DNA of 64,000 nt from Vicinamibacteria bacterium (GCA_965115855.1 OZ220470.1:975385-1039384), one strand, 5' to 3'. Shown: positions 3,243 through 51,643, counted from the first letter of the stretch. Made by a program: numbers and translations. Notes: generated by a model from the sequence alone, not told the origin.

Positions 3243-3248
3243 ACGCCA

Positions 3249-4889: not shown

Positions 4890-4950
4890 TGCGGAATTAT
4901 GGCGTTTCGGGGTTTCGAGGCCGGCCGGCTCACGGTGGAATAATCGGCGG

Positions 4951-6906
4951 ATGCCGGAAGTCGCGCGGAGACGGACCGGCAACCGGTGGGCGCGCGCCGG
5001 CGCCCTCGCTCTCGCCGCCCTCCTGATTGCCGCACAGCCGCCGAACCAGTTCATCGAGCCCGATGCGCGGCTGGAGCTCGGGACGGCCCTCGCCCTCCCG
5101 CGAACGCTCGACTACGACATCGCGCCGGACGGACGGCGGGTGGTGCTCTCGGTGGCGATGCGGAACCGGGCGGTGCTGTTCCTGACCGCTCCCGGCGCCA
5201 CTCCCGGAATTCTGACCGGAGGGCGGCGGTGGGACACATCTCCCCGCTTCCTGCCCGACGGGACCACGGTGGTGTTCGTCGCCGGACGCCGTCCGCGGGG
5301 AGACGATCCGGCGGTCGGGGCGCTCCATCGGATGCCGCTCGGCGGGACTCCGGAGCGACTGACGCCGGAGGGGCTCGAGGCCCGGGAACCGGCAGTGGCC
5401 CCGGACGGCGAACGGGTGGCGTTTCTCGGCCGCGACCGGGAGACCCGACCCGAAGCCGGGTTCGATGTCTGGATCACGGGCGGGGGAGAGACCCGGCGAC
5501 TCACCGGGGCGCCGGGGGACGAGGGCGCCCCTGTCTGGTCGCCCGACGGGTCCCGCATCGCCACGGCGATGGAGACCGACGAGCACCGGATGCTCGCCGT
5601 GGTTCCGGCGGCGGGCGGCGACCCGGTGTTTCTCGCCGAAGATCCCAGCGGGCCGGCCGCCTGGACCCCGGACGGGAACAGCTTGGTCTGGGCCGGTCCG
5701 TGGGACGGTTTCGACGCTCTCCTCCAACGGGACGCGCAAGCGGTCGGTCCGATCCGGCCGCTGGTCACGGAGGACCGGGACCTCGGACAACCCGCCTTTC
5801 GCCCGACCGGCGCGGAACCGGAGCTGGCCTGGATCGAAGCGGATCGGGGCGACTATCGGATCCACCGTTCCCCGGTCGAACCGCACCCCGACGGCGGATG
5901 GCGAATCACCGGACGCGCCCGCCCCCTGCATCGGGGAGGCGGGGTCCATGACCGCCTCCGGTGGACCAACGACGGCGAGGCCCTGGCGGCGCTCTTCGAG
6001 TCTTCCGCCTTCCCGCGGGACGTGTGGGTGTTTCCCCGGGCCGGCGGACGGGAACGCATGAGTGACACCATCTTTCCCGATCTCGACGTCCGGGCCTTCG
6101 CGCGGCCGGAACGGATCGAGGGGGCGGAGGCCGACGGGTTCCTCCACCGGCCGGTGGGAATGGATGCCGAGGCGCCGCTCGTCGTCTACCTGACCGGAAC
6201 CGACGGCGTGGCCTCCCGGAACGGATTTTCGCCCCTGATCCAGCTACTCGCGGTAGAGGGGTACGCCGTCCTCGCCCCCACCCTCCCCGGCGGCGACGGG
6301 CGCGGGCAGCGGTTCCGCGACCGGAACGACCGGGACTGGGGAGGCGCCGATCGGGATGCGCTGGCAGCGATGACCCGGCTCGTCCTCGAACAGCCCGGAA
6401 TCGCCGACCGCGCCTGCGTGTTCGGCGTTCACTATGGCGGATTCCTCGCGCTCGCGGCGCTTTCCCGCCATCCGGATCTTTTCGCCTGCGGCATCGAGGC
6501 CATGGGATTCGCCGACCTGCCCGAGCTGTACCGCAACCTCGACCCCGGGCGGCGACAACTGCTCGAACGGGAATTGGGGCCGCTCCGGGGGAATCTGGAG
6601 CTCTACCGGCGACTGTCCCTCCGGGGAGGTGGAGAAACGGTCACCGCGCCGCTGTTGTCATTCCACGGAGAGGAAGTCCCCGAAGCACCGCTCGAGGCGA
6701 AACGCGGATTCCTCGAAGAGCTGCGAAGGCGGCCGCAGTATCCCCTGCTCGACATGTTCTTCCGTCACGACCGGGGTCGCGCGCTCTTTCGATTCGAAAC
6801 CGACCGGATCGCGTACCACGCCTTCCTCGACCGGGTTCTGGAATTCCTCTCCCTCCACTTGCCGAAGTCCCCCGGCGCACAGAACCCGGCCGACGCAGTC
6901 CGGTAG
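4951..6906 (+). CDS. Secreted S9 family serine peptidase (acylaminoacyl-peptidase-like) with an N-terminal TolB/WD40-like beta-propeller.
   Basis: Signal peptide ALALAALLIAAQPP. Propeller repeats of the DG..vvF form. C-terminal alpha/beta hydrolase with GVHYGGFLA (GxSxGG nucleophile elbow). Confidence 0.8.
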   Translation: MPEVARRRTGNRWARAGALALAALLIAAQPPNQFIEPDARLELGTALALPRTLDYDIAPDGRRVVLSVAMRNRAVLFLTAPGATPGILTGGRRWDTSPRFLPDGTTVVFVAGRRPRGDDPAVGALHRMPLGGTPERLTPEGLEAREPAVAPDGERVAFLGRDRETRPEAGFDVWITGGGETRRLTGAPGDEGAPVWSPDGSRIATAMETDEHRMLAVVPAAGGDPVFLAEDPSGPAAWTPDGNSLVWAGPWDGFDALLQRDAQAVGPIRPLVTEDRDLGQPAFRPTGAEPELAWIEADRGDYRIHRSPVEPHPDGGWRITGRARPLHRGGGVHDRLRWTNDGEALAALFESSAFPRDVWVFPRAGGRERMSDTIFPDLDVRAFARPERIEGAEADGFLHRPVGMDAEAPLVVYLTGTDGVASRNGFSPLIQLLAVEGYAVLAPTLPGGDGRGQRFRDRNDRDWGGADRDALAAMTRLVLEQPGIADRACVFGVHYGGFLALAALSRHPDLFACGIEAMGFADLPELYRNLDPGRRQLLERELGPLRGNLELYRRLSLRGGGETVTAPLLSFHGEEVPEAPLEAKRGFLEELRRRPQYPLLDMFFRHDRGRALFRFETDRIAYHAFLDRVLEFLSLHLPKSPGAQNPADAVR

Positions 6907-7811: not shown

Positions 7812-8720
7812 TCAGCCCCCGTCCGCTTGCGCGGGGATCTGGTTCGCGGCGTGGTACGAGCTGCGGACCAGCGGTCCGGCCTCGACATGCCGCAGTCCCA
7901 TCGCCCGACCCCGCCGCGCCAGCGCGTCGAACTCGGGAGGCGGGACGAACCGCGCCACCGGCAGGTGCTTCCGCGTCGGCTGGAGATACTGCCCGGCGGT
8001 CAGGATGTCCACCCGGATGTCCACCAGGTCGCGCATCACCTCGTCGAGCTCGCTCTCGGTCTCTCCGAGGCCCAGCATGACACCGGTCTTGGTGATGACA
8101 CCGGAAGACCGACCCTTGGCCCGCGCCAGCAATTCGAGCGAACGCCGGTAGCGGGCGCCGGGTCGGACCCGACGGTAGAGCCGGGGGACGGTCTCGACGT
8201 TGTGGTTCAGGATCTCCGGAGCCTCGTCCATGACCCGGTCGAGGGCCTCGTCGACGCCCTGGAAGTCCGGGATCAGCACCTCGATGGTGGTTCCCGGACA
8301 CCGGGCCCGCACCGCCCGGATGGTGGCCGCGAAGATTCCCGCGCCTCCGTCGGGGAGGTCGTCGCGGTTCACCGAGGTGATCACGGCGTGGCGGAGACCC
8401 ATGACTTCCACCGCCCGGGCGACACGCTCCGGCTCCCCGTGATCGAGCCCCTCCGGCAGACCGGTGGTGACCGCGCAAAAGCCGCACGCCCGGGTGCAAA
8501 CGTCGCCGAGGATCATGAAGGTGGCAGTCCCCTCCCCCCAACACTCGGCCATGTTGGGACAGCGGGCCTCCTCGCAGACGGTATGGAGTTCCTGCTCCCG
8601 GAGCAGCTGCCGGAGCCGCGACCAGGTACCCCCGGAGGGGAGCCGCACCCGCAGCCAGGGAGGACGACGCTCGCTCCCGGACGGATCGGCCGGGACGACC
8701 GGGAGCGGAAGCTCGCTCAA
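7812..8720 (-). CDS. lipA: Lipoyl synthase.
   Basis: Radical-SAM CxxxCxxC motif (CTRACGFC) plus the N-terminal cysteine motif (CEEARCPNMAEC). Typical length of 302 aa. Confidence 0.9.
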   Translation of the reverse strand: MSELPLPVVPADPSGSERRPPWLRVRLPSGGTWSRLRQLLREQELHTVCEEARCPNMAECWGEGTATFMILGDVCTRACGFCAVTTGLPEGLDHGEPERVARAVEVMGLRHAVITSVNRDDLPDGGAGIFAATIRAVRARCPGTTIEVLIPDFQGVDEALDRVMDEAPEILNHNVETVPRLYRRVRPGARYRRSLELLARAKGRSSGVITKTGVMLGLGETESELDEVMRDLVDIRVDILTAGQYLQPTRKHLPVARFVPPPEFDALARRGRAMGLRHVEAGPLVRSSYHAANQIPAQADGG

Positions 8721-11014
8721 GAGTCCCCGGAAGGCCAGTTCTCCAGGCGTTCCCTGACCCGGCCCATGAACTGGTCGGCGACCGCGCCGTCAATCAGGCG
8801 GTGATCAAAGGAAAGCGCCAAGAAGACCATCGACCGTACCGCAATGGCGTCGGACTCCACCACCACCGCCCGCTTGTGGACCCCGCCGATCCCGAGAATG
8901 GCCGACTGGGGCTGGGCGATGATGGGGGTTCCGAAGAGCGACCCGTACGGACCGGGATTGGTGATGGTGAACGTGCCGCCCTCCAGATCGGAGAGTTCGA
9001 TCTCCCCCTTCCGGGCGCGCCCCGAAAGGTCGGCGATGCCCCGCGCGATCCCCGTGAAGTTGCGTTCGTCGGCGCGCTCCAGGACCGGAACCACCAGGCC
9101 GTCCGGCAGGGCGACCGCGATGCCGAGGTGCACCGAGGAGTGATACACGATCCGGTCGTCCCGGAGCGACGCGTTCAGGATCGGAAACTCGGAAAGGGCC
9201 TCGATGGCGGCCGCGGCGAAATACGGCATCAGGGTGAGCCGGATGCCGTAGCGCCGCTCCATGTCCCCGCGCCGGGCGGCGCGCGCCGCAACCACCCGCG
9301 ACATGTCCACCTCGAACACCGTGGTGACGTGCGCGGAAGTGCGCCGCGAACGGACCATGTGTTCGGCAATGGCGCGGCGCATCGGCGTGAGCGGTTCGGT
9401 GCGGACGCCTTCCGGCAGTGCCGGCGGCGGTTCGGAGGGCGGCGATTCGGCAACCGGATCCGGGGCCTGCGGCTCCGGCTTCCCGGGTTCGGATTCCTTC
9501 CCCGCTGTTTCGATGTAGTCCTGGATGTCCTGTCGGGTAACCCGGCCCCCTTCCCCGGATCCGTGGACATCGGCGAGATCCACCCCGTGCTCGCGCGCGA
9601 TGCGACGGACGAGCGGCGAGCTCCGTGGACGACGGCGATCCTTCGCTCCGGACGAATCGGCGGCCGGGGGCTCGGGTTCCGCCGGGGCTCCCTCCGGCGT
9701 GGCTTCCCCGGACGACGCGCCGTCGCCGGGGGACCAGTCCTCGCCTTCGGCAGCGATCCGGCCCACCACCGTGTTCACTTCCACGGTGTTGCCTTCGGGC
9801 ACGAGGATCTCCACCAGGCGGCCGGACAGGGCGGCCGGAACCTCGGTGTCCACCTTGTCGGTGGCGATGTCGAAGAGGGGATCGTCACGGGCGACCGTCT
9901 CACCGACCGGGATGCGCCACTTGGTGATGGTTCCCTCGGTGATGCTCTCGCCCATCTGCGGCATGACCACGTCTGTTGGCACGGTGCGGGAATAGTACTC
10001 GGAGCGCCTGCGCCGATCGCGCACCAGTTCCCGCGCCGCCGCCAGCACCTCGGCGTGCGAAGGCAGGTGTTCCGCCTCCAGCCGGGGGGCGTAGGGAACC
10101 GGAGTGTCGCGGGCGGCGATCCGGCGGACCGGCGCCACCAGCTGCTTCCACCCATGTTCCGCGACCTGGGCGACGACCTCGCCGCCGAATCCACCGGTCC
10201 GGTTCGCCTCGTGTGCAACCAGCAATCGGCCGGTGCGCTCCACCGAATCGAGAATCGCCTTCAGGTCGAGGGGCGCGAGGCTGCGGAGGTCCAGAACATC
10301 CGCGTTGATCCCCTCGGCGGCCAGATCGACGGCCGCCTGTTCGACGAGCTGCATCGCGCCGCCCCAGGCCACGAGGGAAATGTCGGAGCCGTTCCGCACC
10401 CGCCGCGCCTGCCCGAGCGGTACGCACTCGGGCCCGGCCTCCCACTCCGACTCGGCAAGGCGAAGGCTGCGGTAGAGGCGCTTGTGTTCCAGGTAGAGCA
10501 CCGGATCGTCGTCGCGAATCGCGGTGCGCAGCAGGCCGGCCGCATCCGACACCGTCGCTGGCGCCACCACCCGGAGGCCGGGAGTGTGGAGGAAGAAGGC
10601 CTCGGGATTCGCCGAGTGGAACGGTCCGGCGCCCACCCCGGCGCCCGCCGGGCCGCGCAGCACCATCGGGACCGCCATGCCCGTGCGGTAGCGGCTCTTG
10701 GCGGCGAAGTTGGTGATCATGTTGAAGGCGCTGGCGATGAAGTCCATGAACTGGAACTCCACCACGGGGCGGAAACCCTCGAATGCGAGCCCCACCGCGA
10801 TGCCGGTGAATCCCTCCTCGCTGATCGGGGTGTCCATCACCCGGGACGGACCGAAGTCGGCGAGAAACCCCTCGGTGAGGCGGAAGGCGCCCCCGTAGGC
10901 GCCGATGTCCTCGCCCAGCAGCAACACCCGTTCGTCCCGCTCCATCTCCGACCGGAGCGCCCGCCGAATCGCTTCCAGATAGGTCACTCCCGGGCGTACC
11001 GGCGCGTCAGACAT
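8717..11014 (-). CDS. 2-oxoacid dehydrogenase E1 beta subunit fused in frame to the E2 dihydrolipoyl acyltransferase (lipoyl domain, E3-binding domain and catalytic domain).
   Basis: A single ORF with no stop between them. The E1beta part is residues MSDAPVRPGVTYLEAI..AAARELV. An RRRRSEYYSRT linker follows. Then comes a lipoyl domain (MPQMGESITEGTITKW..DKVD), the PSBD (SSPLVRRIAREHGVDLADVHGSGEGGRVTRQDI), and the catalytic DHRLIDGA motif. A GGAAGGAG Shine-Dalgarno sequence sits 9 nt before the ATG at 11014. The first 63 codons of the tracked ORF are treated as a non-coding extension. Confidence 0.7.
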   Translation of the reverse strand: MSDAPVRPGVTYLEAIRRALRSEMERDERVLLLGEDIGAYGGAFRLTEGFLADFGPSRVMDTPISEEGFTGIAVGLAFEGFRPVVEFQFMDFIASAFNMITNFAAKSRYRTGMAVPMVLRGPAGAGVGAGPFHSANPEAFFLHTPGLRVVAPATVSDAAGLLRTAIRDDDPVLYLEHKRLYRSLRLAESEWEAGPECVPLGQARRVRNGSDISLVAWGGAMQLVEQAAVDLAAEGINADVLDLRSLAPLDLKAILDSVERTGRLLVAHEANRTGGFGGEVVAQVAEHGWKQLVAPVRRIAARDTPVPYAPRLEAEHLPSHAEVLAAARELVRDRRRRSEYYSRTVPTDVVMPQMGESITEGTITKWRIPVGETVARDDPLFDIATDKVDTEVPAALSGRLVEILVPEGNTVEVNTVVGRIAAEGEDWSPGDGASSGEATPEGAPAEPEPPAADSSGAKDRRRPRSSPLVRRIAREHGVDLADVHGSGEGGRVTRQDIQDYIETAGKESEPGKPEPQAPDPVAESPPSEPPPALPEGVRTEPLTPMRRAIAEHMVRSRRTSAHVTTVFEVDMSRVVAARAARRGDMERRYGIRLTLMPYFAAAAIEALSEFPILNASLRDDRIVYHSSVHLGIAVALPDGLVVPVLERADERNFTGIARGIADLSGRARKGEIELSDLEGGTFTITNPGPYGSLFGTPIIAQPQSAILGIGGVHKRAVVVESDAIAVRSMVFLALSFDHRLIDGAVADQFMGRVRERLENWPSGDS

Positions 11015-11735
11015 CGGGCAGCGCTCCTTCCGGGGCGGGGAGCAGCCGACGACCGAACACCCGGGCAATCGAGGCGGCGAGGCGGTCGGTGAACCGGTCG
11101 AGTGACGGGCGGCGCCCGGTCTCCGCTTCCAGCGACGTGATCCGGCAGCCGCTGATACCGCAGGGCACGATCCGGTCGAACCAGCGGAGGTCGCACCCCA
11201 CATTCACCGCGACGCCGTGGCTCGTGACCCACCGCGCCACCCGCACGCCGATCGCCGCCAGCTTGCGGGAATCGGCCTCCGCGCCCCCGCACCAGACCCC
11301 GGTGCATCCGGGCCGGCGCCCGGCAGCAACCCCGTAACCGGACACCGCCTCAATCACCGCCTGCTCGAGGGCCCGGAGATAGGCGCGGACATCCTTCCTC
11401 CAGTGGCGAAGGTCGAGGATCGGATAGGCCACCAGCTGACCGGGGCCATGGAAGGTCACATCCCCGCCCCGGTCGGTCTCGCACACCTCGGCACCCATCC
11501 GTTCCGGAGCAAGGAGCAGATGGCGGGGGTCGGCCACCGTGCCGAGCGTGTATACCGGCGGATGTTCGGTGAGCAGCAGGACATCCGGGATCTCGTCACG
11601 CTGGCGCCGGGCGACCAGCTCGCGCTGGGTCTTCACCCCGTCCCGGTAGGGGAGCGGTTTGCGGTCCAGCCGCCAGAGCGCCGGGCGGGGATCGGTCGCC
11701 CGGCGGGCGCCGTCACCCGAAGCGAACGGGGACAC
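11007..11735 (-). CDS. lipB: Octanoyl-[ACP]:protein N-octanoyltransferase.
   Basis: LipB family motifs (LLLTEHPPVYTLG, KLAAIGVRV, GCDLRWFDRIVPCG). Its stop lies 2 nt before the E1beta-E2 start. Confidence 0.85.
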   Translation of the reverse strand: MSPFASGDGARRATDPRPALWRLDRKPLPYRDGVKTQRELVARRQRDEIPDVLLLTEHPPVYTLGTVADPRHLLLAPERMGAEVCETDRGGDVTFHGPGQLVAYPILDLRHWRKDVRAYLRALEQAVIEAVSGYGVAAGRRPGCTGVWCGGAEADSRKLAAIGVRVARWVTSHGVAVNVGCDLRWFDRIVPCGISGCRITSLEAETGRRPSLDRFTDRLAASIARVFGRRLLPAPEGALPDV

Positions 11736-15257: not shown

Positions 15258-17171
15258 CTACCCGCCCCCGGCTTCGTCGTTCTCGGTGACCGTCACCGTC
15301 ACGCTGCCGATCGTCACCGAGTCGTAACCGCCGCCGCTCGCCCCATGCGTCAACACCACATCGGGGTCCGCCGTTGCGTCCTCGTCCTCCGCCGCCGATA
15401 CCGTCACCGTCTGTGGCGTGGCGTAGTTTGCGGGCGTGAAGGTCAGCGGCGAACCCGCCACCGTCACGTCACCCGAAGCGCCACCCACCGTCACCGACAC
15501 GTCCGCCGACGGTTCCGCGTTCAGCGCCACGGTGTACGTGCCGGCACCGCCTTCCACCACGGTCAGCGTGGGCGTCGAGATCGTCACTCCAGCGACAGCG
15601 GCCTCAATGGCCTCGACCGGTGTTGCGGTCACCTCGTCGGAAGCCGCCCCGATGCCGCCCGTCGCATCCGCCCGCGCCCGAATCCGGAAGCCGTGGACCG
15701 TGTCGTTTCCCAGATTCGTGATCGTGTGCGTCGTCGTCGGCGCACCGGACCCGTCGATGACCGTCCACGACCCGTAGCTGCCGCTACCGATTTTCTGCTG
15801 GACCTCCCAGCCCGTGACCTTTTCCACGGCGGCGGCGGCATTCCAGCCCAGGGTGACCGACCCGTCGCCCGCGGTGGCGGCAAGGCCCGTCGGCTTGCCC
15901 GGCGGACCGATCCAGACCCCGGTCGCATCGGACGGCGGGCCGGCCGCATCGCCGTTCAACGCCCGGATGCGCAATTCCCTGAGACCCACGACGGACTCGG
16001 GAAGAACCAGGCTGCCCGGCTGATCCCCGGCTTCGTCAGGGTCGTCGGGACGCGCCGGTATCGGTTCGGTTGGAGCCCACTCCCCATCACCCCATGTCCC
16101 GTCTGCGGTTTTCATCTGGTATTCCAATGCGTCCAGATCCCCGCAGCCGATCGGAATTCCTGCGTGGACTGTCAAGGCCCGGGGGCTGGAATCGGAGGAG
16201 GGGCCGGTGGCGTCCACGATCTCGATCTGGCACGGTGGCACATCCGGGGTCGCCTTCACTTCCACCGAATCCGCGCCCGGAATGGCGCCGTTCCTTGCCC
16301 GCACCTGGAACGCATGGGCCAATCCGTTCGTCAGGCCGGTGACCACATGGCGAGACGTGGACATACCCGATTCGGGGATAACGGTCCAGTCCCCGTAATC
16401 GTCCGCGCCCGTCTGCTGCCGGACCTGCCAGCTGGTGATGCTGGCATTCACCGATTCGTCCCAGGCAAGCGTCACCTGGCGATCTCCCGCAGCGGCAGCG
16501 AGCCCGGCGGGCGCGGCGGGAGCGCCGTCGTCGTCGACAACCGTCACGGTGATCGTTCCCGCGGTCCACGACTCGACCTCGGCCGCGTCGTTCGGAAGGG
16601 CCTTGAACGTCAGCGTCACGTCGCTCCCGTCGTCCGTGTCGCCGAGGATGCCGAAGGTGAACGTCGCGGTTGTCTCGCCAGGGGCAATCGTGACCGTGGT
16701 CCCCTTCGGCCAGCACATGTCGGCGCCCGTCGGATCCGGAGTGTCGCAACCGCCGGCGATCCCGATCACGCCGAATGTTCCCGTGCTGCTTTCCGCGACC
16801 GGTTCCATGTTCACCACCAGGCCACCATCCACCGCTTCCCCGAGCGTGACCGTGATGGCGATCTCGGTCACGCCGGAGTCCCCCTCGGTGAACGACGTCG
16901 TGGAGGCCGACAGCGTGATGGTCTTGCCACCGGCGTCCTGGGCCGCCGCCGTATTCGGCGATTCCGCAGCTGCAACCGGTGCTGGCGCCCGGGCCGGCGC
17001 GCGAGCCGCGGCGGGAACCCTCGGAATGGAGGGCGTGGTGGGACCGGACGACCCGCAGCCCCCCGACCCGAAAAGGCCCACGATGGCAAGCGCCAGGCCA
17101 CCGCGCCCGATCCGCCGTTCCGGCACCCGCGCTCCGCAGCAAAAGAAAGACCGGATGTACCTGTGATTCAT
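15258..17171 (-). CDS. Large surface lipoprotein with a Calx-beta-like N-terminal domain, three fibronectin type III domains and a conserved C-terminal beta-domain (paralog A).
   Basis: Lipobox LALAIVGLFGSGGCGSS at the start MNHRYIRS. FN3 signatures (WQVRQQTG..WTVI..TSRHVVTGLTNG..HAFQVRARN). N- and C-terminal blocks are shared with the 29514..33755 gene. Confidence 0.75.
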   Translation of the reverse strand: MNHRYIRSFFCCGARVPERRIGRGGLALAIVGLFGSGGCGSSGPTTPSIPRVPAAARAPARAPAPVAAAESPNTAAAQDAGGKTITLSASTTSFTEGDSGVTEIAITVTLGEAVDGGLVVNMEPVAESSTGTFGVIGIAGGCDTPDPTGADMCWPKGTTVTIAPGETTATFTFGILGDTDDGSDVTLTFKALPNDAAEVESWTAGTITVTVVDDDGAPAAPAGLAAAAGDRQVTLAWDESVNASITSWQVRQQTGADDYGDWTVIPESGMSTSRHVVTGLTNGLAHAFQVRARNGAIPGADSVEVKATPDVPPCQIEIVDATGPSSDSSPRALTVHAGIPIGCGDLDALEYQMKTADGTWGDGEWAPTEPIPARPDDPDEAGDQPGSLVLPESVVGLRELRIRALNGDAAGPPSDATGVWIGPPGKPTGLAATAGDGSVTLGWNAAAAVEKVTGWEVQQKIGSGSYGSWTVIDGSGAPTTTHTITNLGNDTVHGFRIRARADATGGIGAASDEVTATPVEAIEAAVAGVTISTPTLTVVEGGAGTYTVALNAEPSADVSVTVGGASGDVTVAGSPLTFTPANYATPQTVTVSAAEDEDATADPDVVLTHGASGGGYDSVTIGSVTVTVTENDEAGGG

Positions 17172-17334
17172 GGTTTTCTTTCGCGCCCCCGCAACCCGCA
17201 TCCGAAGGCCCGCCAGACACGAACGGATTCAACGGGGCCATCCGAAATGTATCGCACGACGCAATTTCGAGTGACCGCGACCAGCTGTCTGCAAAGGACG
17301 GCGCAAGAATCGGACGACTCCGATTCGTTCGGAC

Positions 17335-18090
17335 CTACTCCCGCAGCTTGCAACCGTCGGCAGTGCACACCGCTTCCGGATCTCCCGAACAGGCATCAGA
17401 TGTGGACCGAAAGCGGAATTCCAAATCGGGATAGCCCTTCCAACCTGTACCCCATTCAACCTCGAGGTTGTGTCGCACTCCAGTTCCTGTCGGCTCGAAA
17501 GACCAAAGTGACACATCCTGGTGCAGACGGCGTTGCCACACGTACGGACCAAGCCATTCAAGAACAACGTCCGCCGACGTCGCGTCCACTTCGAGAGTCA
17601 GCGATACCATTTCGGTGCCACCACGAATCAAGCTACGAAAGTCATTCGGTATCAGTCTTCCCGACAGAAAGACTCCTTCGCAGGGACGGACTCCCCCGTC
17701 CTCGATAACAATCCGATGAGTTTCATCACCGAAAGAAAGAAGAAGAAATTCGTTGTCTTCGGCGAACTGGGTATCCTCAACCGCATCCACCTCAAAGGTC
17801 ATCTCGCCGGAACCCGCTTCACCCACTGGAATCTTCAGGCTTTTCGTGGAAATTTTGTAGTCATCCTCGCTGACATCGCCTCCCACAGCCAACAACATTT
17901 CCATCGGATAATCCACTCGCCCGGTGACTGAATACGCGACGTTAACGAGCGCGGTATTTCCCTCCCGAACCGTTTGCTCCGCTTCCTGGAAGACCACAGC
18001 GACCAACGGCTGCGACCCGGGAGTGGGTGATACAGACGGGGAATCAGAGCCCCCACAACCGATCTCGACAAGAAGAAAAAACAACAGCAT
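17335..18090 (-). CDS. Small lipoprotein with a Calx-beta domain. Low GC (about 50%).
   Basis: Lipobox LLVEIGCGGS. Calx-beta pattern (VAVVFQEAEQTVREGNTALVNVAYSVTG..DYKISTKSLKIP..EMTFEVDAVEDTQFAEDNEFLLLSF). GC content is atypical. Confidence 0.6.
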   Translation of the reverse strand: MLLFFLLVEIGCGGSDSPSVSPTPGSQPLVAVVFQEAEQTVREGNTALVNVAYSVTGRVDYPMEMLLAVGGDVSEDDYKISTKSLKIPVGEAGSGEMTFEVDAVEDTQFAEDNEFLLLSFGDETHRIVIEDGGVRPCEGVFLSGRLIPNDFRSLIRGGTEMVSLTLEVDATSADVVLEWLGPYVWQRRLHQDVSLWSFEPTGTGVRHNLEVEWGTGWKGYPDLEFRFRSTSDACSGDPEAVCTADGCKLRE

Positions 18091-18491
18091 CGACGCATAT
18101 TTGACGCGTGCGTGGCGGAACAAGGGAATCACGGGTGCTTGAATCGATCTTTGCGTATCTCTATGGACTCGGTTTGGGTTGTCGAGCCCGCCTCCACTCG
18201 CACTGGATAGGGTAGCATTGTCTCCACGACAACCATCGGGCCCAATAAACTGCGCTGACCATAATGTGCGTTTGGCTCGGTAAGTGGAGATACCCAGAGA
18301 ACGTACGCCTCAACTCAATTTCGAGTGGGTACGGGCTGGAAGCTCGCCGGGGGGCCGGGTGTCAAGGGCGGGCGTAGCCCGGCGCAGCGAACCCTTGACG
18401 CTCGGCCCCCCGGCGGGCATGCTCGGTTCCGGGGTCGAAAAGCGGCAGAATGCTGTTTTTCGGCCCCATCCCTGCATTGGAGAAGCATCTC

Positions 18492-19295
18492 ATGACAAAC
18501 ATCCACCAGATCTTCGCAACCGCGCTTGGCCTCATCGAACCATGGTTCGTCGAAAGCGTGAAGTTTGTCGAACCTGACCGCAAGCTGATCATCCGAGTCG
18601 ACTTCCAGCGTGGCGCCCGCTTTCCTCACAAGGACCATGAAGGTACACACCCCATCCATGACACCAGGACCAAGTGCTATCGCCACCTCAACTTCTTCCA
18701 GTATAAATGTGAAGTGGTCGCAAGGGTTCCGAGGGTCCGTCTGCCCGACGGACGGGTCGCGCTGGTCACCACGCCCTGGACGGGTCAGGTCTCCGGATTC
18801 ACTGCACTCTTCGAAGCGTTGGTGATCGTCATGAGTCGGGAAATGCCCTTCGCCGCAGTCGCACGGTTGAACAAGGTTTCCCCACACCGGGTCCAAGCCA
18901 TCTGCAACCACTACGTGGAACTCGCCTCCGCTGAGGACGACCAGGGCGCCGTTCGCGCCGTCACCATCGACGAGACCTCCCGGGCCCGGGGGCACGACTA
19001 TGTCACCGTTGCCGCCGACGCCCGCAAACGCCGGGTGCTGTTTGTCGGAGAGGGCCGGGGGGCCGACACGGTCGGGCAATTCGCCCGGAATCTGGTGATG
19101 CGGGGTGGCGCCCCCGAAGCGATCCAGTTCGTCTCGATCGACATGTCCCCCGCTTTCATAAAGGGGGTTGCGAAGCATTTGCCCCATGCCCGGATCACCT
19201 TCGACAAGTTCCATGTCGTCGCCCATGCCTCGAGGGCCCTCGACGAGACCAGACGCCTCGAGCAGCGAGTGGAGCCGGGGATCAAGGGCATGCGC
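18492..19295 (+). pseudogene. ISL3-family transposase, N-terminal two thirds. It is interrupted by the IS256-family insertion.
   Basis: Zn-finger/HTH N-terminus and DDE core of ISL3 transposases. The reading frame changes to IS256 terminal sequence after ..EPGIKGMRG. Confidence 0.8.
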
Positions 19296-20781
19296 GGCCC
19301 TGTAAGAAATTTTGTGTGTTGAGTGATTTTGACTGGGTTCATGGGATCGGCGCCACTTGGCGTTCTGGGCCGGATGGAGGGAGCGGAGCGACCGGAGGCC
19401 GGACCAGAACGCGCGCCCCGGCGAGCACCCACCTTCCCCTCGCGGGAGCTTCGCAGCGCCTTCGGGGATGGCGTGTCCGTTCATCTTCCTTCCTCAGGCG
19501 GTGGGCGCAAACCGCTCGCCGAACTGGATGGCGAACTGCGCCTTGGCAGCTTGCCACACTTGGGGCGGTCTCTTCCACTTCGCCGTGATGTTGCGCAGTG
19601 CCAAGTACATCAGCTTCGTCGCCGCCTCGTCACTTGGGAAGTGCCCCTTGTTCCGGATCGCCTTCCGAAGCTGGCTGTGCAGGCTCTCGATCGCGTTCGT
19701 CGTGTAGAGAATCCGCCGCACCTCCGGTGAAAACGCCAGAAACGGGATCACCTCATCCCATCGGCGCCGCCAACTCCGCGCCACCGCACCAAAGCGCTTC
19801 CCGTACGGACCCGACTCGAAACGATCCAGTTCCACCCCGGCGGCCTCCGCCGACGGCGCCGTGTAGATCCCTTGCAGCGCCTTCGCCAGCGAACCCCGTT
19901 CCTTCCACGATGCGAACTGCAGGGAATACCGAATGAGATGAACCACGCAGGTTTGCACCACGCACGCCGGATACTCCGCCCGGATCGCCTCCGGGAACCC
20001 CCTCAAACCATCCACCACCGCGATCAGCAAGTCCTTGACACCCCGTGCCTTGAGCTCGTTCATCACCCGTAGCCAGAACTTCGCGCCCTCTGTCTGCTGG
20101 ATCCACAGCCCCAGAACCTCCTTCTGACCGTCGCAGGTGTACCCGATCGCAAGGTATGCCGCCTTGTTCCGCACAAGCCCCTCGTCCCGGATCTTCACCC
20201 GCAGCGCATCAAAGTACACCACCGCGTACGTCGCTTCCAGTGGACGGCTCTGCCACTCCGTCACCTCCTCCAAAACCCCGTCGGTGACCGCCGAGATCAG
20301 CGCCGGGGAAACCCCCATCCCGTACAACTCCTCGATGTGCGCCTGGATGTCCCGCGTGCTCATCCCCCGCGCGTACATCGCAATGATCTTCTCATCAAAC
20401 CCCGGAAGACGACGCTGGTACTTGGCCACCAGAACCGGGTCGAAGCGCCCCTGCCGATCCCGCGGGATGTCCAAAACGATCCGCTCGTCGCCCGTGTCCA
20501 CCGTCTTCCGCGACGTCCCGTTGCGGTGGTTCCCCGTCCGTCGTTCCCCCGAATCCGCCAAGTGGGCCTCCATCTCAGCCAGCAGCATCCGCTCGGCCAA
20601 GGCCTTCTTCAAGTCCCCCGCCAAGGACTCGAAACCCGCAGCCCCGGAGGCGCCCCGCATGGCGATCAGTTCATCCAGCAGCTCGCGTGAGATGCCGTCG
20701 TTGTGCTTCTTGGCCATTTCTTCGACTCCTTCCGAAAAAAGTCATGGTAGGCCTCGAACACACAAAATTCTGAACAGCCTC
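19296..20781. mobile_element. IS256-family insertion sequence (about 1.49 kb). It is flanked by an 8-bp target-site duplication GCATGCGC, at 19288-19295 and 20782-20789.
   Basis: Terminal inverted repeats are GGCCCTGTAAGAAATTTTGTGTGTT and (reverse complement) GAGGCTGTTCAGAATTTTGTGTGTT. Deleting the element and one TSD copy restores the ISL3 transposase motif IKGMRWTLLKNP. Confidence 0.85.
19494..20717 (-). CDS. IS256-family (mutator-type) transposase.
   Basis: 407 aa with IS256/Mutator hallmarks ([46 protein letters not shown]). Confidence 0.9.
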
Positions 20782-20783
20782 GC

Positions 20784-21218
20784 ATGCGCTGGACCTTGCT
20801 CAAGAATCCGGCACACCTCAGCCGCAACCAACGCTCCGCTCTCAACGCACTGATCGCACAGGCCGCGGGCAAGCGCACCACTCGATCCTGGCAGTACCGG
20901 GAGCAACTCCGGGCCATCCTCAACCGCAAACAGGTCCATGTCATGCGGGCCATGCTCCAACAGTGGTGCACCAGTGTGAATCGATCCCGGATCGAACCCA
21001 TGAAAGCCGTAGCCCGGATGATCCGAAGACACTTCGACGGCATCACCGCGTGGGCCCAAACCCGCCAGACCAACGGGTTCATCGAAGCACTCAATGGCCT
21101 CTTCCAATCCGCCAAACGGAAAGCCAGGGGCTATCGTTCCTTCCGTACCATCCGCACCGTTTTCTTTCTCATTGCCGGAAAACTCGACTTCTCCAAGCTC
21201 AACCCTTACCTCGCATAA
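20784..21218 (+). pseudogene. ISL3-family transposase, C-terminal fragment.
   Basis: MRWTLLKNPAHLSRNQ...FIEALNGLFQSAKRKARGYRSFRTIRTVFFLIAGKLDF is the conserved ISL3 C-terminus. Confidence 0.8.
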
Positions 21219-28926: not shown

Positions 28927-29454
28927 TCAGCCGTGGAGCATGGCGTACACCACAAGTCCGCTGAGCGAGACATAGACCCACACCGGCGCGGCGACCCGCG
29001 CCCAGCGCCGGTGGGTGGAGAACCGCCGGTTCACCGCCAGCAGGGCGGTGGTCAGAACCAGCGGAAGCGCCACCGCCGAGGCGACGATGTGGGTGATGAG
29101 AACGGTGAAGTAGACGGGACGAAGGAGACCTTCGCCGGGGTACGGCGTGTCCCCCTGGAAGTAATGGTAGACCGCGTAGCTCACGAGGAACGAGGCCCCG
29201 ACGGCGAGCGCCGCCCCAAGCAGCCCGATGTGGACGTTCCGCCGCCCGCTCCGGATCGCCAAAACCCCGAGTGAGACGAGGGTGAGAGTGGCCGCATTCA
29301 GCGAAGCGTTCACCCCGGGAAGCGACGCCGTCCACATGGGAACGACCGCCGGAGCCGCCCGCAGGTAGAGCAGCCACATCAGGGCGGCGAACACGACCCC
29401 GCTGACCAGAAAGGCCGAGCGCACCACCCGACGATCCGATTCCGTGCCCGACAT
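28927..29454 (-). CDS. DUF420-family integral membrane protein.
   Basis: Four predicted TM helices and a conserved YHYF motif region, typical of DUF420 proteins of about 170 aa. Confidence 0.55.
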   Translation of the reverse strand: MSGTESDRRVVRSAFLVSGVVFAALMWLLYLRAAPAVVPMWTASLPGVNASLNAATLTLVSLGVLAIRSGRRNVHIGLLGAALAVGASFLVSYAVYHYFQGDTPYPGEGLLRPVYFTVLITHIVASAVALPLVLTTALLAVNRRFSTHRRWARVAAPVWVYVSLSGLVVYAMLHG

Positions 29455-29513
29455 CGACCGGAAGCATAGGCCGGGCGGCCCGGCTTCCCCGGGAGCCCGG
29501 CCGCGCCTCCCTA

Positions 29514-32500
29514 CTATCCGCCGCTCCCGTCGTTTTCGGCGACCGTGACCGTGACGCTGTCAATCGTCACCGAGTCATACCCGCCGCCGCTCGCCCCGTG
29601 CGTCAACACCACGGCTGGATCCGCTGTCGCGTCCTCGTCCTCGTCCGCCGAAACCGTCACCATCTGCGGCGCCCCGTAGTTCGTGCTCGTGAAGGTCAGA
29701 CTCGCCGGAACAACGCGGACGTCGCCGGAGGCCCCAGCCACTGTCACCGTCACATCACCGCCCGCAGGCCGCGAATCCAGATGCACCGTATAACTCCCGC
29801 TGCCGCCTTCGGCCACTGTCAGCGCGGAATCCGAAACCGTCACCCCGGCCGTGTCGTCATCCATGATCGTGCCAGTGGCTTCGAGCCTCTTCTTCCCGCC
29901 CTCGAAGACCACGCGCCTGTCGCTCGTACGGATGTTGTTCAGGCGCAGGGTGAACGTCTCGTCGTCCTCATCCACCTCATCGCCCAGAACCCGCACGGTC
30001 ACCATCTTGGTCAGATCTCGACCGGTAGCATTGGCCGCGAACACCAGATTCTGGTCCCGGAACCCGACAAAGTCCCGCCCAGCGCCTCGCCCCCCCTTGG
30101 CCGTGCCCGGCCGAGCCCACGCCGTCGCCCGAATCTCCACATCGTGGCTCGGGGAACCACTCAACGTAACGGTGAATTCCATGTCGGTCTCGCCCGAATC
30201 CCCCTCGTCAACGGTCACATCCGAAACCGAAATCTCATGGCCGGTCGACTTGGCGGCATCGTCATCCATGATCGTCCCGATGACTTCGAGCCTCTTCCTT
30301 CCGTTCTCGAAGGCCACTAGCGGGTCGCCCGTTCGGATGTTGTTCAAACGCAGGACAAGCGTCTCGTCGTTTTCTTCCACCTCGTCACCCAACACCTTGA
30401 CCGTCACTATTTTGGTCAGGTCCGCCCCGGTCGCATTCGCTGGAAACACCAGATTCCGATCTCGGAACCCGATGAAATCCCGACCGGCCCCTTTGCCACC
30501 CTTGGCGATATCAATGGCGTCCCTGCTCCATGCCGTCGCCCGAATCTCCACATCGTGGCTCGGCGAGTCACTCAGCGTGACCGTGAAGTCCATGTTCGTT
30601 TCGCCCGAATCCCCTTCGTCAACTGTCACATCAGACGCCGATATCAGCGGCCGAATCGGCTCCGGCTCCGGCCCCGGAACCGGCGCGCGAATCAGCACTT
30701 CCAGTGTGTCGGACACCTCACTGTAGCCGTTAGGATTCACGGCGCGGATTTGGATTCCAAGCGTTTCGCCCTGACTTAGTGTGAAATTTCGATAATCGAT
30801 ATAGCACGGGAGTTCGGTGTCAAGGTGCAAAAGATCGGACCAAGGACTCCACTGACCCTGCCAGCTACGATGTCTGATTCGACTTTGCCACTTAGTAATG
30901 CTGGAGTCCTTCGGATCATCCCAATTGACTGTAACACAATCGGGCAAATGTGCATATCCTTGAAACGCTATAAGACCCGTCGGTTTCGCTGGTACAGCAT
31001 TGCCATACTCGATTACCGACACCACAACAGAGTCAATCGTTATCGAGTCATAGCCACCTCCGCTGGCGCTATGCGTCAGCGTCACATCGGGATCCGTAGT
31101 GGTGTCCATGTCGTATTTCGCGAAAACCGTCACAACTTGTTCGGTGGTCCAATTCCCCCGCGTAAAGGTGAGTGATGATTTATCTACTGTCACATCCCCT
31201 GATTCACCACCCACGGTGATCGTCACGGTCCCTGACGGCGCTTGATTCAATTTTATCGTGTAGCTTTCGCTCCCACCCTCGCGCACCGTCAATTCGGACT
31301 CCGAGACCGTCACTCCCGCGGGAGTCGCTCGCGGCGTCGCCATCACTACAACAGAAGGTTCGCTAAATCCATTGGCGTTCACTGCGCGTACTTGATATTT
31401 ATAAGAAGTTCCAGGAGGACCTCCTCTCTCGTTCCAATATGTCTTGAATTGACCTGATGTTTCCACATATATCTCGGACCACTCATCGCATAATTCAAAT
31501 ATCTCATTGAAACACGCTAAGTCATCCCTTTTCTCCCAACGAATAATACTGGAATCCATGGGGTCATCCCAAGTCAGAACGATTCGTCTGCCGTGTACTG
31601 AGGCCTGAACGCCGGTCGGCTTGGCCGGCACAGCGCTCACTATATCGGAGACCGGGCCGCGCCCATTGGCATTTACTGCCCGCACTTGGAATTCGTAATA
31701 TTCTACATTTTGGAGGTCATGACTGTTGATGATCAATATATCTATCTTGCCGCTACTTCGTTGCCAAGACTCCCAATCCGACCCTTGAATTCTGAGCCGA
31801 TACTCCATAGCAACAATGTTCGAATTGTCCATAGAATCATACTTCAATCTGATATGCCATCCCATTATGGTTGCCGTTAGACGTGTTGGCTTTGCCGGCA
31901 CTCCTCCAGATGACTCCATGGGGACCGCAGTCACAACATCGGAAGCCAAACCGGCACCGTGAATATTCACCGCACGTACTTGAAATACGTAGACAATTCC
32001 GTTCGTCAGATCAATAACCGTGTGATTGCCATGGGAACCGGATTCGCGGATGTCCTTCCATCTCTTGTTTGCCAAACCCTCTTCCTGTGGCGCACTCCGC
32101 ACTTGCCATCCAACGATATTGGCATCGAATAAACCCTCGCCGATGATCGGGCCACTCCAGAACAAACCAACGCGCGAATCACCGGCTTCCGCCGTAAAAT
32201 GCAACGGCTTGCCAGGAGTCGGCGTCCGTGTAGGCACTGCCGAGACTACGTCCGACGCCGGACCAACACCGTAAATGTTCCTGGCACGCACTTGAAATAC
32301 ATAGCTTGTTCCGTTCGTCAGGCCGGTAACGTTGTAGTTGCTGGGAGCGTAATCGGTACGATCAAAATTCAAATCTTGCCAGCTTTTGCTTGTCACGCCT
32401 TCCGCTTGAGACGCCATCCGAATCTGCCACGTTGCATCTCTTTCTCTTAAAATGGGGTTCCAGGTCAACACTACCGAACCATCACGTGGCGCGGCGGTAA

Positions 32501-33755
32501 ATCCTGTCGGCTTGGACGGTGGCTTTCCTTCTGACAGAAATGGCGTGGCGGCAACAACATCCGAGGCCACGCCCGCACCGTTGGCGTTCACAGCGCGTAC
32601 CTGAAAAACAAGCAGCATACCGACTTCCCTACTGAAATCGTAGGGGGCTGTGCCGTAAGATGTTATATCGGACCTGACATTCCACCATTCCTGAGAACTC
32701 AAATTTTCGTTCTCCTGAAATGCCCACCTCATCTGCCATCCGGTTATGCTGGGATCCTTTGGGTCGTCCCAAGTCACCACTATAGTTCCACCCCGGCTGG
32801 CGGTAACAGCGACGCCCTTCGGCTTGCCAGGAGTTGGCGCAAGCATCGGGGTCACGATCACTTCGTCCGAAGCGGCACTTGAAGTATTACCTTTCATCGC
32901 CCGAATTTTGAATCCGTATGCCGTACCGTTCGCCAAGTTGGTTATCGTGTGACTGGACGTGGATGCACTCGATCCCGCAATGTCGGTCCAATCGCCGTAA
33001 TTGCTGTTTCCGGACTTCATTTGATACTGCCAACCAGTGATGCTGGCATTTACCGATTCGTCCCAGTTCAGGGTTGTCTGTCGATCTCCTGCGACGGCGA
33101 CGAGACCCATAGGAGCGCCGGGAGCGCCGTCGTCGTCGACGATAGTCAAGGTGATGGTTCCGGCGGTCCACATCGTGGCTTGGACCGAGTTGTTCGGAAT
33201 GGCCTTGAATGTGAGAGTCTCGTCACGTTCGTCTTCCGCGTCACCGAGGACACTGAATTGGAACGTGGCAGTCCTTTCGCCGCTGCTGATCGTGGCAACA
33301 GCGCCATTGGGCCAACACATGTCGGCACCCGAGGGAGCCGGACTGCTGCAGCCACTGGCGGTCATGGTCTCGTTGAATGTTCCCGTGCTCTCAGCAGCAA
33401 CTGGTTCCATCTTGACATCAAAACTGCCGTCTGCCGCGTCGCCAAGCATTACGGTGATGGCGATATCGGTCCTTTCCGAGTCCCCCTCCGTGAACGACGT
33501 TATCCCAGATGAAAGCGTGATGATCTTGCCCGCGATACCCTGAGCCGCGATGGCGACCGGCCCGTCGGGAGATGCTCCCGGTGCAGAAGGAGTGGCCGGA
33601 GCGGGAGTGACACGAGGCGATGACGGCGTAGTGGGATTGGAAGACCCGCAACCGCTCACTCCGAGCAGGACGGCGATGCCAAGCGCAATTCCTACATAGC
33701 CAAGATGCCGATCAAATCGAACGCAAGCGCTAACGGGAGTAGTATGGATTTTCAT
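29514..33755 (-). CDS. Giant surface lipoprotein (about 1413 aa, paralog B). It has a Calx-beta-like N-terminal domain, at least 8 fibronectin type III domains, two Calx-beta domains and a conserved C-terminal beta-domain. Its central third has only about 50% GC.
   Basis: Start at MKIHTTPVSA with lipobox LLGVSGCGSS. Repeated FN3 signatures (W..R.......W......YxFQVRAVN). Calx-beta motifs (VTVDEGDSGETxMxFTVTLS..DETLVLRLNNIRT). N- and C-terminal blocks are near-identical in architecture to the 15258..17171 protein. Confidence 0.8.
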   Translation of the reverse strand: MKIHTTPVSACVRFDRHLGYVGIALGIAVLLGVSGCGSSNPTTPSSPRVTPAPATPSAPGASPDGPVAIAAQGIAGKIITLSSGITSFTEGDSERTDIAITVMLGDAADGSFDVKMEPVAAESTGTFNETMTASGCSSPAPSGADMCWPNGAVATISSGERTATFQFSVLGDAEDERDETLTFKAIPNNSVQATMWTAGTITLTIVDDDGAPGAPMGLVAVAGDRQTTLNWDESVNASITGWQYQMKSGNSNYGDWTDIAGSSASTSSHTITNLANGTAYGFKIRAMKGNTSSAASDEVIVTPMLAPTPGKPKGVAVTASRGGTIVVTWDDPKDPSITGWQMRWAFQENENLSSQEWWNVRSDITSYGTAPYDFSREVGMLLVFQVRAVNANGAGVASDVVAATPFLSEGKPPSKPTGFTAAPRDGSVVLTWNPILRERDATWQIRMASQAEGVTSKSWQDLNFDRTDYAPSNYNVTGLTNGTSYVFQVRARNIYGVGPASDVVSAVPTRTPTPGKPLHFTAEAGDSRVGLFWSGPIIGEGLFDANIVGWQVRSAPQEEGLANKRWKDIRESGSHGNHTVIDLTNGIVYVFQVRAVNIHGAGLASDVVTAVPMESSGGVPAKPTRLTATIMGWHIRLKYDSMDNSNIVAMEYRLRIQGSDWESWQRSSGKIDILIINSHDLQNVEYYEFQVRAVNANGRGPVSDIVSAVPAKPTGVQASVHGRRIVLTWDDPMDSSIIRWEKRDDLACFNEIFELCDEWSEIYVETSGQFKTYWNERGGPPGTSYKYQVRAVNANGFSEPSVVVMATPRATPAGVTVSESELTVREGGSESYTIKLNQAPSGTVTITVGGESGDVTVDKSSLTFTRGNWTTEQVVTVFAKYDMDTTTDPDVTLTHSASGGGYDSITIDSVVVSVIEYGNAVPAKPTGLIAFQGYAHLPDCVTVNWDDPKDSSITKWQSRIRHRSWQGQWSPWSDLLHLDTELPCYIDYRNFTLSQGETLGIQIRAVNPNGYSEVSDTLEVLIRAPVPGPEPEPIRPLISASDVTVDEGDSGETNMDFTVTLSDSPSHDVEIRATAWSRDAIDIAKGGKGAGRDFIGFRDRNLVFPANATGADLTKIVTVKVLGDEVEENDETLVLRLNNIRTGDPLVAFENGRKRLEVIGTIMDDDAAKSTGHEISVSDVTVDEGDSGETDMEFTVTLSGSPSHDVEIRATAWARPGTAKGGRGAGRDFVGFRDQNLVFAANATGRDLTKMVTVRVLGDEVDEDDETFTLRLNNIRTSDRRVVFEGGKKRLEATGTIMDDDTAGVTVSDSALTVAEGGSGSYTVHLDSRPAGGDVTVTVAGASGDVRVVPASLTFTSTNYGAPQMVTVSADEDEDATADPAVVLTHGASGGGYDSVTIDSVTVTVAENDGSGG

Positions 33756-34295
33756 AGATAGAGATGGCCTTTCGGGCGGAACTTCGGGAGGAGAGTGCAG
33801 TATCGGCGAGTGGATTCCGGCGATAAAACCAAGGAATTCCAACGCATTGAGTGTAGTCACCCAGAATGTCAGTTCTGACATTAATCGCATCATTTTTCGG
33901 CGCACGCGCTGCGAACAAAAGGTGACAACCGCTCGATTGGTGGATCGGCGCAGTGGTCGCGCCTGGTCCACGCAGGCGCCAGTGATCGCGGTGTTCACCG
34001 ATTCCGACTTTTCGGTTATCCCAAGTACGACGAACCGTGATCTCCGGAAACTCGGCGCCCGGACGGTCGAGGGGGGCACTACCGGATCGGTTCGACCGAA
34101 CGAGCTCGATTCATGGCTTGCGGACGCGGGCGAAAGCCCCGGTTCCCCCGGGCCGAACACTCTGCTCTTCGGGCGGCGCGGTAGCGGCGATGCGACCTCA
34201 ACTACCGCGGTCCGTCGTTGGGGGTCGCGGAGAGCGCCACCCCAGGGACGGCGGCGCGCTAGCTAACGGTTACCGCTTCCGCTTGGTGTGATAAT

Positions 34296-34772
34296 ATGTC
34301 GCATACTATGCAGAACCGGGGCGGCGGCCATGCGGAGCGGCGGGGGGCGCTGCGGCGGTTGCTGGCGGAGCGGCGGCTGGCGACGCAGGCCGAGGTGATC
34401 GCGGCGCTGGCCGAGGACGGGTTTCCGGTGACGCAGCCGGCGGTGAGCCGGGATCTCCGGGAACTCGGCGCCCGCAAGGTGGAAGGGCGGTACCGGATCG
34501 GACCGACCGAATGGTCGCGGTTTATGGGTCTCGGCGCCCTCGTGGAGGCGCTGGTTCCCGCGGGGCCGAACATCCTCGTCATTCGGACGGCTCCCGGCGG
34601 GGCGCAGCGGGCGGGCCATGCCCTCGACAACGCCGGATGGCAGGAAATCGCCGGCACGGTCGCGGGCGACGACACCGTGTTCGTCGCCAGCCGGAGCGCC
34701 GCCGACCAGAACCGGCTGCTGGAGCGGCTGCGGAAAGCCCTCTCCAGCGAAAGCGAGAAGGTCCCGGCATGA
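34296..34772 (+). CDS. argR: Arginine repressor.
   Basis: N-terminal winged helix (LATQAEVIAALAEDGFPVTQPAVSRDLRELG) and C-terminal oligomerisation domain with GTVAGDDTVFV. Its stop overlaps the argC start (ATGA). Confidence 0.85.
   Translation: MSHTMQNRGGGHAERRGALRRLLAERRLATQAEVIAALAEDGFPVTQPAVSRDLRELGARKVEGRYRIGPTEWSRFMGLGALVEALVPAGPNILVIRTAPGGAQRAGHALDNAGWQEIAGTVAGDDTVFVASRSAADQNRLLERLRKALSSESEKVPA

Positions 34773-49957: not shown

Positions 49958-51643
<1,686 letters not shown>

Follow-up and report, generated by a model that had tools for sequence, protein, structure and literature searches.

Mosaic genes for bacterial surface proteins form by intragenic recombination and module shuffling, as in streptococcal and pneumococcal surface proteins and the giant Bap/LapA-type adhesins, and some surface loci, such as the O-antigen or capsule clusters of enterobacteria, are persistently low in GC. 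Compositionally atypical genes acquired by lateral transfer, and their amelioration, were reportedly described by Lawrence and Ochman in 1997. Here we analyze gene A, which occupies 29514-33755 on the minus strand of a 64,000-nucleotide stretch of a Vicinamibacteria genome (GCA_965115855.1 OZ220470.1:975385-1039384; this whole stretch is referred to as the window) and encodes a predicted modular surface lipoprotein. Gene A is a two-block compositional mosaic. Block 1, at approximately 30750-33958, comprises the promoter, signal peptide, N-terminal (NT) domain, FN3 domains 1-7 and an internal domain, Ci, at a GC of 0.534; block 2, the last ~410 codons, has a GC of 0.628 with native-like synonymous sites.

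Among described systems, the FN3/cadherin adhesion proteins of sponge symbionts offer one comparison. Robbins et al. 2021 reported FN3 and cadherin genes to be enriched in metagenome-assembled genomes (MAGs) from sponges and to be among cross-phylum transfers (PMC8163846). In common with these proteins, gene A has an FN3 array whose best structure matches are animal proteins, Calx-beta modules, and relatives in many phyla with a cross-phylum similarity consistent with lateral transfer. It differs in that its product is small (1413 aa) and predicted to be lipid-anchored, whereas many of its relatives are giant open reading frames (ORFs). No sharp GC step inside a single gene was found in the literature searched.

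The likeness to the other systems is likewise partial. As with laterally acquired genes, the GC at third codon positions (GC3) and the codon usage of gene A are deviant, the boundaries are sharp, and there is neither a detectable donor nor a match listed from a congener; however, gene A lacks an integrase, a tRNA site and flanking repeats, only part of the gene is deviant, and that part is nearest to a resident paralog. With mosaic surface-protein genes it shares a tandem array of beta-sandwich domains, a junction at a conserved motif and modules of apparently different histories. Unlike the Bap/LapA and streptococcal types it has no RTX, type-1-secretion signal or LPXTG motif, carrying an N-terminal lipobox instead; in the Pfam scan a LapA domain reached only 16.9-17 bits, below the cut-off of 27, and no RTX family was reported. 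As in O-antigen and capsule clusters, a presumably surface-exposed, variable product is encoded at a GC far below that of the genome and between conserved housekeeping genes, but gene A is a single protein-coding gene, not a biosynthetic cluster, and is known here from one genome.

Results

The window has a GC of 67.5% overall and 68.9% without its two low-GC regions. Measured over 300-nt intervals, GC is 0.69-0.73 on both flanks of gene A and drops to 0.47-0.57 for most of its length; the gene as a whole stands at 0.56 and its centre at 0.47-0.55, against about 0.69-0.71 in the flanks, in agreement with the dip that an earlier note on this DNA had described. Across 29 other ORFs of the window, GC3 was 0.849 +/- 0.049 with a minimum of 0.65 (230 intervals of 100 codons), compared with 0.46-0.67 over the first ~1000 codons of gene A and 0.71-0.81 thereafter, which establishes the anomaly as real and large. 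Neighbouring genes have a GC3 of 0.82-0.88, and the immediate neighbours, DUF420 within 60 bp downstream and another gene right after the argR relic described below, stand at 0.86-0.87.

Four-fold degenerate sites place the boundary. Their GC is 0.59 in codons 1-308, 0.56 in codons 309-1002 and 0.83 in codons 1003-1413, against 0.89 in neighbouring genes and 0.83 in paralog B, a second lipoprotein gene in the window. Likelihood change-point analysis of these sites gave a single step at codon 1002-1003, from 0.57 to 0.83, with a likelihood ratio of 53.6. Its support interval (codons 992-1026, positions 30678-30782) spans the conserved G-strand motif of FN3 together with the beginning of the linker between FN3-7 and the first Calx-beta domain. 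The same analysis detected no second step inside the 5' block (permutation p 0.51). By the Bayesian information criterion (BIC), one step (1849.8) was preferred to a three-block model with two steps (1855.2) and to a V-shaped gradient (1853.4). The non-coding upstream/promoter region (33756-33958), with a GC of 0.527, groups compositionally with the 5' block. The earlier note had the outer thirds of the gene as high-GC around a low-GC centre. That description holds for the 3' third; the 5' third, at 0.59, is like the centre and far from its neighbours, and low GC extends through the signal peptide and promoter, so that a high/low/high pattern gives way to one step.

Total GC and GC3 would, taken by domain, suggest something different at the 5' end: they are 0.59/0.63 in NT, 0.48/0.45 in FN3-6 and 0.68/0.78 in the C-terminal domain, with FN3-5 and FN3-6 the lowest (total GC 0.47-0.48, GC3 0.45-0.51). 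GC3 reaches 0.70 in the core of NT and is 0.45-0.61 from FN3-1 to Ci, Ci itself being at 0.61. This apparently GC-higher 5' end is largely due to amino-acid composition. Codon usage in codons 309-1002 is far from native, AGR making up 34% of Arg codons, TTR 50% of Leu codons and ATA 32% of Ile codons, versus 3-4, 5-6 and 0-2% in native genes; it resembles that of an FN3 gene from a Treponema MAG of ~49% GC (50, 43 and 28%).

The ORF of gene A is unbroken over its 1413 codons in translation, as expected from the earlier description of a 4.2-kb lipoprotein gene. Its first 36 residues (33648-33755) form a signal peptide and lipobox ending in LLGVSGC, seen by inspection and homologous to those of paralog B; the sequence, MKIHTT...GIALGIAVLLGVSGC with Cys36, conforms to the pattern [LVI][ASTVI][GAS]C, and the lipoprotein call is thus a prediction from inspection alone. 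The deposited gene call (P0001, 1311 aa) begins at residue 103 and omits the signal peptide and lipobox (33450-33755). As judged from their conservation with paralog B, the ATG at 33755 appears to be the better start.

Domain order was obtained by motif-based splitting together with hidden Markov models (HMMs) built from gene A and paralog B, supplemented by Pfam. All domains lie on the minus strand, and from the lipobox on they are NT (33126-33575), FN3-1 to FN3-6 followed by Ci (30996-33125), FN3-7 (30648-30995) and a 3' cassette with native-like synonymous composition (29517-30647). Individually, the first group consists of FN3-1 (32832-33125), FN3-2 (32523-32831), FN3-3 (32217-32522), FN3-4 (31902-32216), FN3-5 (31629-31901), FN3-6 (31323-31628) and Ci, a CT-type domain (30996-31322), and the cassette of Calx-beta domains X1 (30240-30647) and X2 (29850-30239) and the C-terminal CT domain, Ct (29517-29849). 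The centre was previously read as FN3 domains 2-9; we count seven FN3-like domains in the gene, not nine, with Ci between FN3-6 and FN3-7.

Pfam fn3 (PF00041) matched the whole protein at 129.2 bits (gathering cut-off 25). When domains were scanned singly, FN3-1 (36.7 bits), FN3-3 (39.8), FN3-4 (31.3) and FN3-6 (27.4) passed, FN3-2 (24.0) and FN3-5 (22.7) fell slightly under the cut-off, and neither FN3-7, against fn3, nor NT, against Pfam as a whole, gave a match. FN3-7 is divergent, carries an IQIRAVNPNG motif and was placed by the domain HMMs. FN3-2, FN3-3 and FN3-4 are mutual best matches, which suggests local duplication. Pfam Calx-beta (PF03160) scored 43.6 bits over residues 1178-1301 (cut-off 27), and X1 and X2 are 79% identical. 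In hhalign comparisons the NT family aligned with the Calx family at a probability of 98.6% (E 1e-15), bearing out the claim of a Calx-beta-like N-terminal domain, and the CT family aligned less strongly, at 93%. Against solved structures, the FN3 run matched animal proteins (titin, neogenin and receptor tyrosine phosphatases). From domain types, lipobox and knowledge of the family, the most likely product is a lipid-anchored adhesin on the outer surface; it would display a stalk in which FN3 modules, whose loops diverge, are combined with Calx-beta modules that bind calcium.

A frameshifted relic of argR (33959-34177, plus strand) marks where block 1 ends upstream, flanked on one side by the low-GC promoter of gene A and on the other by the region upstream of intact argR. 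The latter (34308-34772, plus strand, with Pfam Arg_repressor domains) is the divergent neighbour of gene A; a longer ORF, 34296-34772, has a GC3 of 0.87, and the deposited call has the exact argR sequence. The relic is a degenerate copy of argR nucleotides ~78-296, with 73% nucleotide identity to 34373-34591, a dozen indels and recognizable peptides in two frames. Its local alignment score was 105 against a shuffle maximum of 37, and repeat families D6-D8, D10 and D20 all show a constant spacing of 411-413 nt between 33970-34159 and 34383-34572. The GC of the relic is 0.658, compared with 0.717 in the matching part of argR, upstream of which it lies by 413 nt. Mismatches are near-even over codon positions (0.27/0.21/0.34), so divergence was mostly by neutral decay, and changes run 30 GC-to-AT versus 14 AT-to-GC, implying a neutral equilibrium GC of 0.56 (bootstrap 0.41-0.69). 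A 413-bp tandem duplication including the argR upstream region was considered and rejected, there being no support beyond argR nucleotides ~62-314; the DNA left of the relic showed no similarity to the upstream region or 5' end of argR (p 0.16-0.25). Its origin is either a local duplication or a fragment brought in with foreign DNA. On either account, the upstream edge of block 1 is the exact site of an old rearrangement recorded by the relic.

Paralog B (15258-17201, minus strand, GC3 0.81) is built from a lipobox (LFGSGGC), NT, FN3, a degenerate FN3-like domain, FN3 and CT, and gene A has additional FN3 domains relative to it. The two also share the signal peptide and linker. Amino-acid identity is 57-58% in NT, 54-56% in FN3-1 and 72% in the C-terminal domain, upholding the earlier report of homology. 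Per-domain GC3 in paralog B is native-like (0.77-0.86). Recent gene conversion between the two genes is excluded by a nucleotide identity of 0.62-0.73 throughout (72% over 522 nt in the 5' part) without any near-identical tract. A third lipoprotein ORF, small and immediately upstream of paralog B (17335-18132, minus strand), has a lipobox (LLVEIGCGG) and a Calx-like motif, no Pfam match, and a low GC (GC3 0.58, four-fold 0.60). Also beside the paralog locus, an IS256/Mutator-family transposase gene (19494-20717) interrupts an ISL3-family transposase gene, whose two parts are 18450-19322 and 20784-21218; the insertion sequences are thus nested.

Relatives in other genomes were sought by several routes. 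Among the 120 matches listed from 5.8 billion clustered proteins, the sole close match to gene A was gene A itself (P0001); the others were arrays of FN3 domains that aligned over long stretches at 26-37% identity, and no ortholog was among them. An exhaustive reading of 1.84 billion representatives returned no ortholog either, and in these two sets FN3-2 to FN3-7 had no relative above 49% identity; overall, about 15 billion proteins yielded none above ~49% for these domains. Best matches of FN3 2-7 were giant proteins (2,000-7,900 aa) with a GC-rich amino-acid composition, and they fall in the same GC-rich giant-adhesin pool as the best matches of the flanks. A domain of one listed protein (P0130) shares 74% identity with Ci. 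Scans of the JGI metagenomes found nothing for gene A and one distant 3.7-kb contig for ArgR, and a scan of viral contigs found nothing. Across clustered proteins, representatives, JGI metagenomes and viral contigs no donor lineage was identified; the low-GC part and the flanks point by homology to one pool, and no donor can be named. The separate searches proposed in the earlier note thus do not show a foreign origin by homology.

A module scan across genomes, with one genome per species, showed that FN3, Calx and CT modules, in mixed order, make up ORFs of 4000-5000+ aa. These occur in MAGs from many phyla, among them Pseudohongiella, Thermoanaerobaculia, Pseudomonadales, Acidimicrobiales, Dehalococcoidia and Longimicrobiales. 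Identity to domains of these giant ORFs is 65-76% for X1 and X2 and 60-69% for Ct and Ci. Over its whole length X1-X2-Ct aligns contiguously with a Calx-Calx-CT run of Pseudohongiella ORFs at 61.5% amino-acid and 71-73% nucleotide identity, and modules common to different genomes share only 71-75% DNA identity. Module genes deviate from housekeeping genes at four-fold sites in other genomes too: 0.70-0.81 versus 0.90-0.93 at locus L001, 0.45 versus 0.59-0.65 at L019, and 0.75 (P0076) versus 0.81-0.86 at L017. The L017/L018 genome (ENA ERZ24894574 ctg6925c, 3.01 Mb), which has called genes of 9323 and 12653 residues, has module genes at 0.75-0.93 around housekeeping genes at 0.81-0.86, indicating that the compositional heterogeneity of the class runs both ways. 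In an Acidimicrobiales MAG (OZ219783), FN3/Calx genes at L007 4960-8484 and L008 5470-7263 are extremely G+T-rich at four-fold sites (T 0.38-0.44, G 0.40-0.44, C 0.12-0.16, A 0.03-0.04), a strand-asymmetric usage that is absent from the flanking genes.

The GroEL encoded in the window (49997-51643) shares 82% identity with named Vicinamibacteria sequences and 94-95% with proteins on contigs of 2.35 Mb and 2.86 Mb. The latter contig, with a GC of 0.689, is syntenic with the window over 40.3-53.0 kb at 86% nucleotide identity over 11.4 kb, and is a congener. None of the 120 clustered-protein matches listed for gene A comes from the congeneric chromosome, on which an ortholog would have ranked second and so been expected among them; this absence is judged from the match list, not from the DUF420-argR interval. 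Proteins of six neighbouring genes are singletons in 90%-identity clusters. Named relatives of gene A include Aphanocapsa feldmannii, a sponge symbiont, as well as MAGs of lineages typical of sponges, and the source genome may be host-associated, with a sponge as the probable host. The organism also appears to carry the aerobic benzoyl-CoA pathway, given boxB (benzoyl-CoA 2,3-epoxidase) and boxC (2,3-epoxybenzoyl-CoA dihydrolase) equivalog matches at 1815-5054 (minus strand).

No mobility gene, tRNA or flanking direct repeat was found next to gene A, and repeat finding gave no flanking repeats other than the argR relic. The nearest transposases are at 18450-21218, and the only tRNA call in the window is at 9618-9692. 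This call (ARAGORN tRNA-Arg(CCG), plus strand) lies inside an ORF on the opposite strand (8717-11203, 828 aa) that has both pyruvate dehydrogenase E1-beta and E2 matches; either the tRNA call is wrong or the ORF merges two genes. Repeats in 29000-34600 are diverged domain copies at 71-86% identity, and that interval holds no near-identical repeat pair of the kind expected of a diversity-generating retroelement target, reverse transcriptase not having been searched for across the whole window.

Discussion

The explanation we favour, though we would give it only an even chance, is that gene A is a chimera whose block 1 was imported or recombined in. A lower-GC replicon or genome with a member of the same lipoprotein family would have supplied block 1, which would have recombined into the locus; block 2 (Calx-Calx-CT) has the composition of the GC-rich pool and of the resident genome. 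Their junction lies in or close to the most conserved FN3 motif and linker, and the truncated argR copy at the other end of block 1 would be what an illegitimate join or a local duplication left behind at that time. Several observations lead us to infer this import and its order of events. There is one sharp step at four-fold sites, block 1 is homogeneous and includes the promoter, and the immediate neighbours are back at native GC3. Composition and codon usage are atypical within sharp boundaries (0.57 versus 0.89), as is looked for in lateral segments, and the codon fingerprint is like that of the Treponema MAG gene and unlike native genes. No ortholog was found and none is listed from the congener, and the argR relic marks the upstream edge. 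Finally, the class is known to be mobile (PMC8163846), the same modules occur in MAGs of many phyla, and in several other genomes, too, the four-fold GC of module genes departs from that of housekeeping genes. In this form the earlier proposal of a foreign FN3 cassette recombined into a resident gene keeps its chimera and loses its geometry, block 1 being homogeneous from the promoter on.

Four points weigh against an imported block 1. Its signal peptide, NT and FN3-1 are most closely related to the resident paralog B, and a donor would for this reason need to have this lipoprotein family as well. The searches gave no donor, FN3 2-7 having best matches of at most 49% identity with a GC-rich amino-acid composition. 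The equilibrium GC implied by the argR relic, 0.56, equals the four-fold GC of block 1, so drift in place would give the same composition. The lack of a mobility gene, tRNA or flanking direct repeat next to gene A points the same way. An animal-host origin of FN3 2-7 was also considered; it was rejected on their bacterial-pool motif and on best matches that are giant and GC-rich like bacterial MAG ORFs.

A possible, though less probable, account, in line with the alternative of a very different mutational history given in the earlier note, is compositional relaxation in place, in which the 5' block of an old resident paralog drifted to an AT-biased mutational equilibrium. A hypervariable 5' block may have escaped selection on codon usage or the GC-biased gene conversion that accompanies homologous recombination, while the conserved 3' cassette still recombines or is younger. 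The position of paralog B as nearest relative of the 5' frame fits this account, as does the mutational spectrum of the relic, with its 30 GC-to-AT changes against 14 and an equilibrium of 0.56 that matches the 0.56-0.59 of the block at four-fold sites. Ci is AT-shifted (GC3 0.61) though 74% identical to a GC-rich homolog, the second Calx-like lipoprotein gene at 17335-18132 is likewise low in GC, and AT-shifted module genes recur in other genomes. Per-domain GC3 also rises with the identity of a domain to its closest external relative (Spearman 0.86, n=12), but this correlation is partly circular, as AT-shifted amino-acid usage itself lowers identity to GC-rich homologs. Relaxation predicts a gradient, however, and not a sharp single step; moving from 0.89 to 0.57 would, calculated from the relic numbers, require ~3.5-6.6x the neutral change seen in the relic; the congener, at 86% nucleotide identity, contributes no ortholog among the matches listed; and paralog B, of the same functional class, remains at 0.81-0.83. 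The stricter version, that a resident and hypervariable 5' block escaped the maintenance of ~69% GC and now sits at a neutral equilibrium of ~0.5-0.56, for which the adjacent argR relic gives an independent value, we consider rather unlikely.

An imported block 1 also has to be set against an internal foreign low-GC FN3 cassette (~30700-32900) within a resident NT ... Calx-Calx-CT frame, which we regard as improbable. Total GC and GC3 are indeed lowest in FN3-5 and FN3-6 and somewhat higher in NT, and the FN3 domains additional to those of paralog B are what such an insertion would provide. Against this, the four-fold GC of the 5' frame (0.59) is indistinguishable from that of the centre (0.56) where native genes are at 0.89, the BIC favours one change point over two with no extra step inside the block, and the signal peptide and promoter are low in GC too.

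An assembly artefact, in which a metagenomic chimera joined reads of a lower-GC organism at shared FN3/Calx repeats, is very improbable even though the source is a MAG-type 3.0-Mb contig and repeated modules are common to co-occurring genomes, because a 1413-codon ORF with intact domain boundaries would need two in-frame joins, ~41 chance stop codons would be expected in 1002 codons at this composition by calculation, shared modules at 71-75% DNA identity are too dissimilar to mislead a long-read assembler, and paralog B, on the same contig, is a specific relative of the 5' frame.

The locus also carries a caution, in that total GC can mislead on mosaicism: here amino-acid composition masked the AT shift of the 5' frame. 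Should relaxation in place turn out to be true, the locus would pair a neutral and a coding measure of equilibrium versus realized GC, the step at the FN3 motif would mark where homologous recombination, together with GC-biased gene conversion, stops, and a single gene would serve as a natural experiment on the upkeep of high bacterial GC. Gene A is a clean but unexceptional instance of a compositionally atypical, modular surface-protein gene that has probably been laterally shuffled, and import and fusion events of this kind are already known for adhesin genes. It is a well-delimited example of how FN3/Calx adhesin genes, which are abundant in symbiont MAGs, are built from parts of different histories, to which it adds a breakpoint mapped to a conserved repeat motif and, on the opposite side of the block, a scar in the form of a pseudogene.

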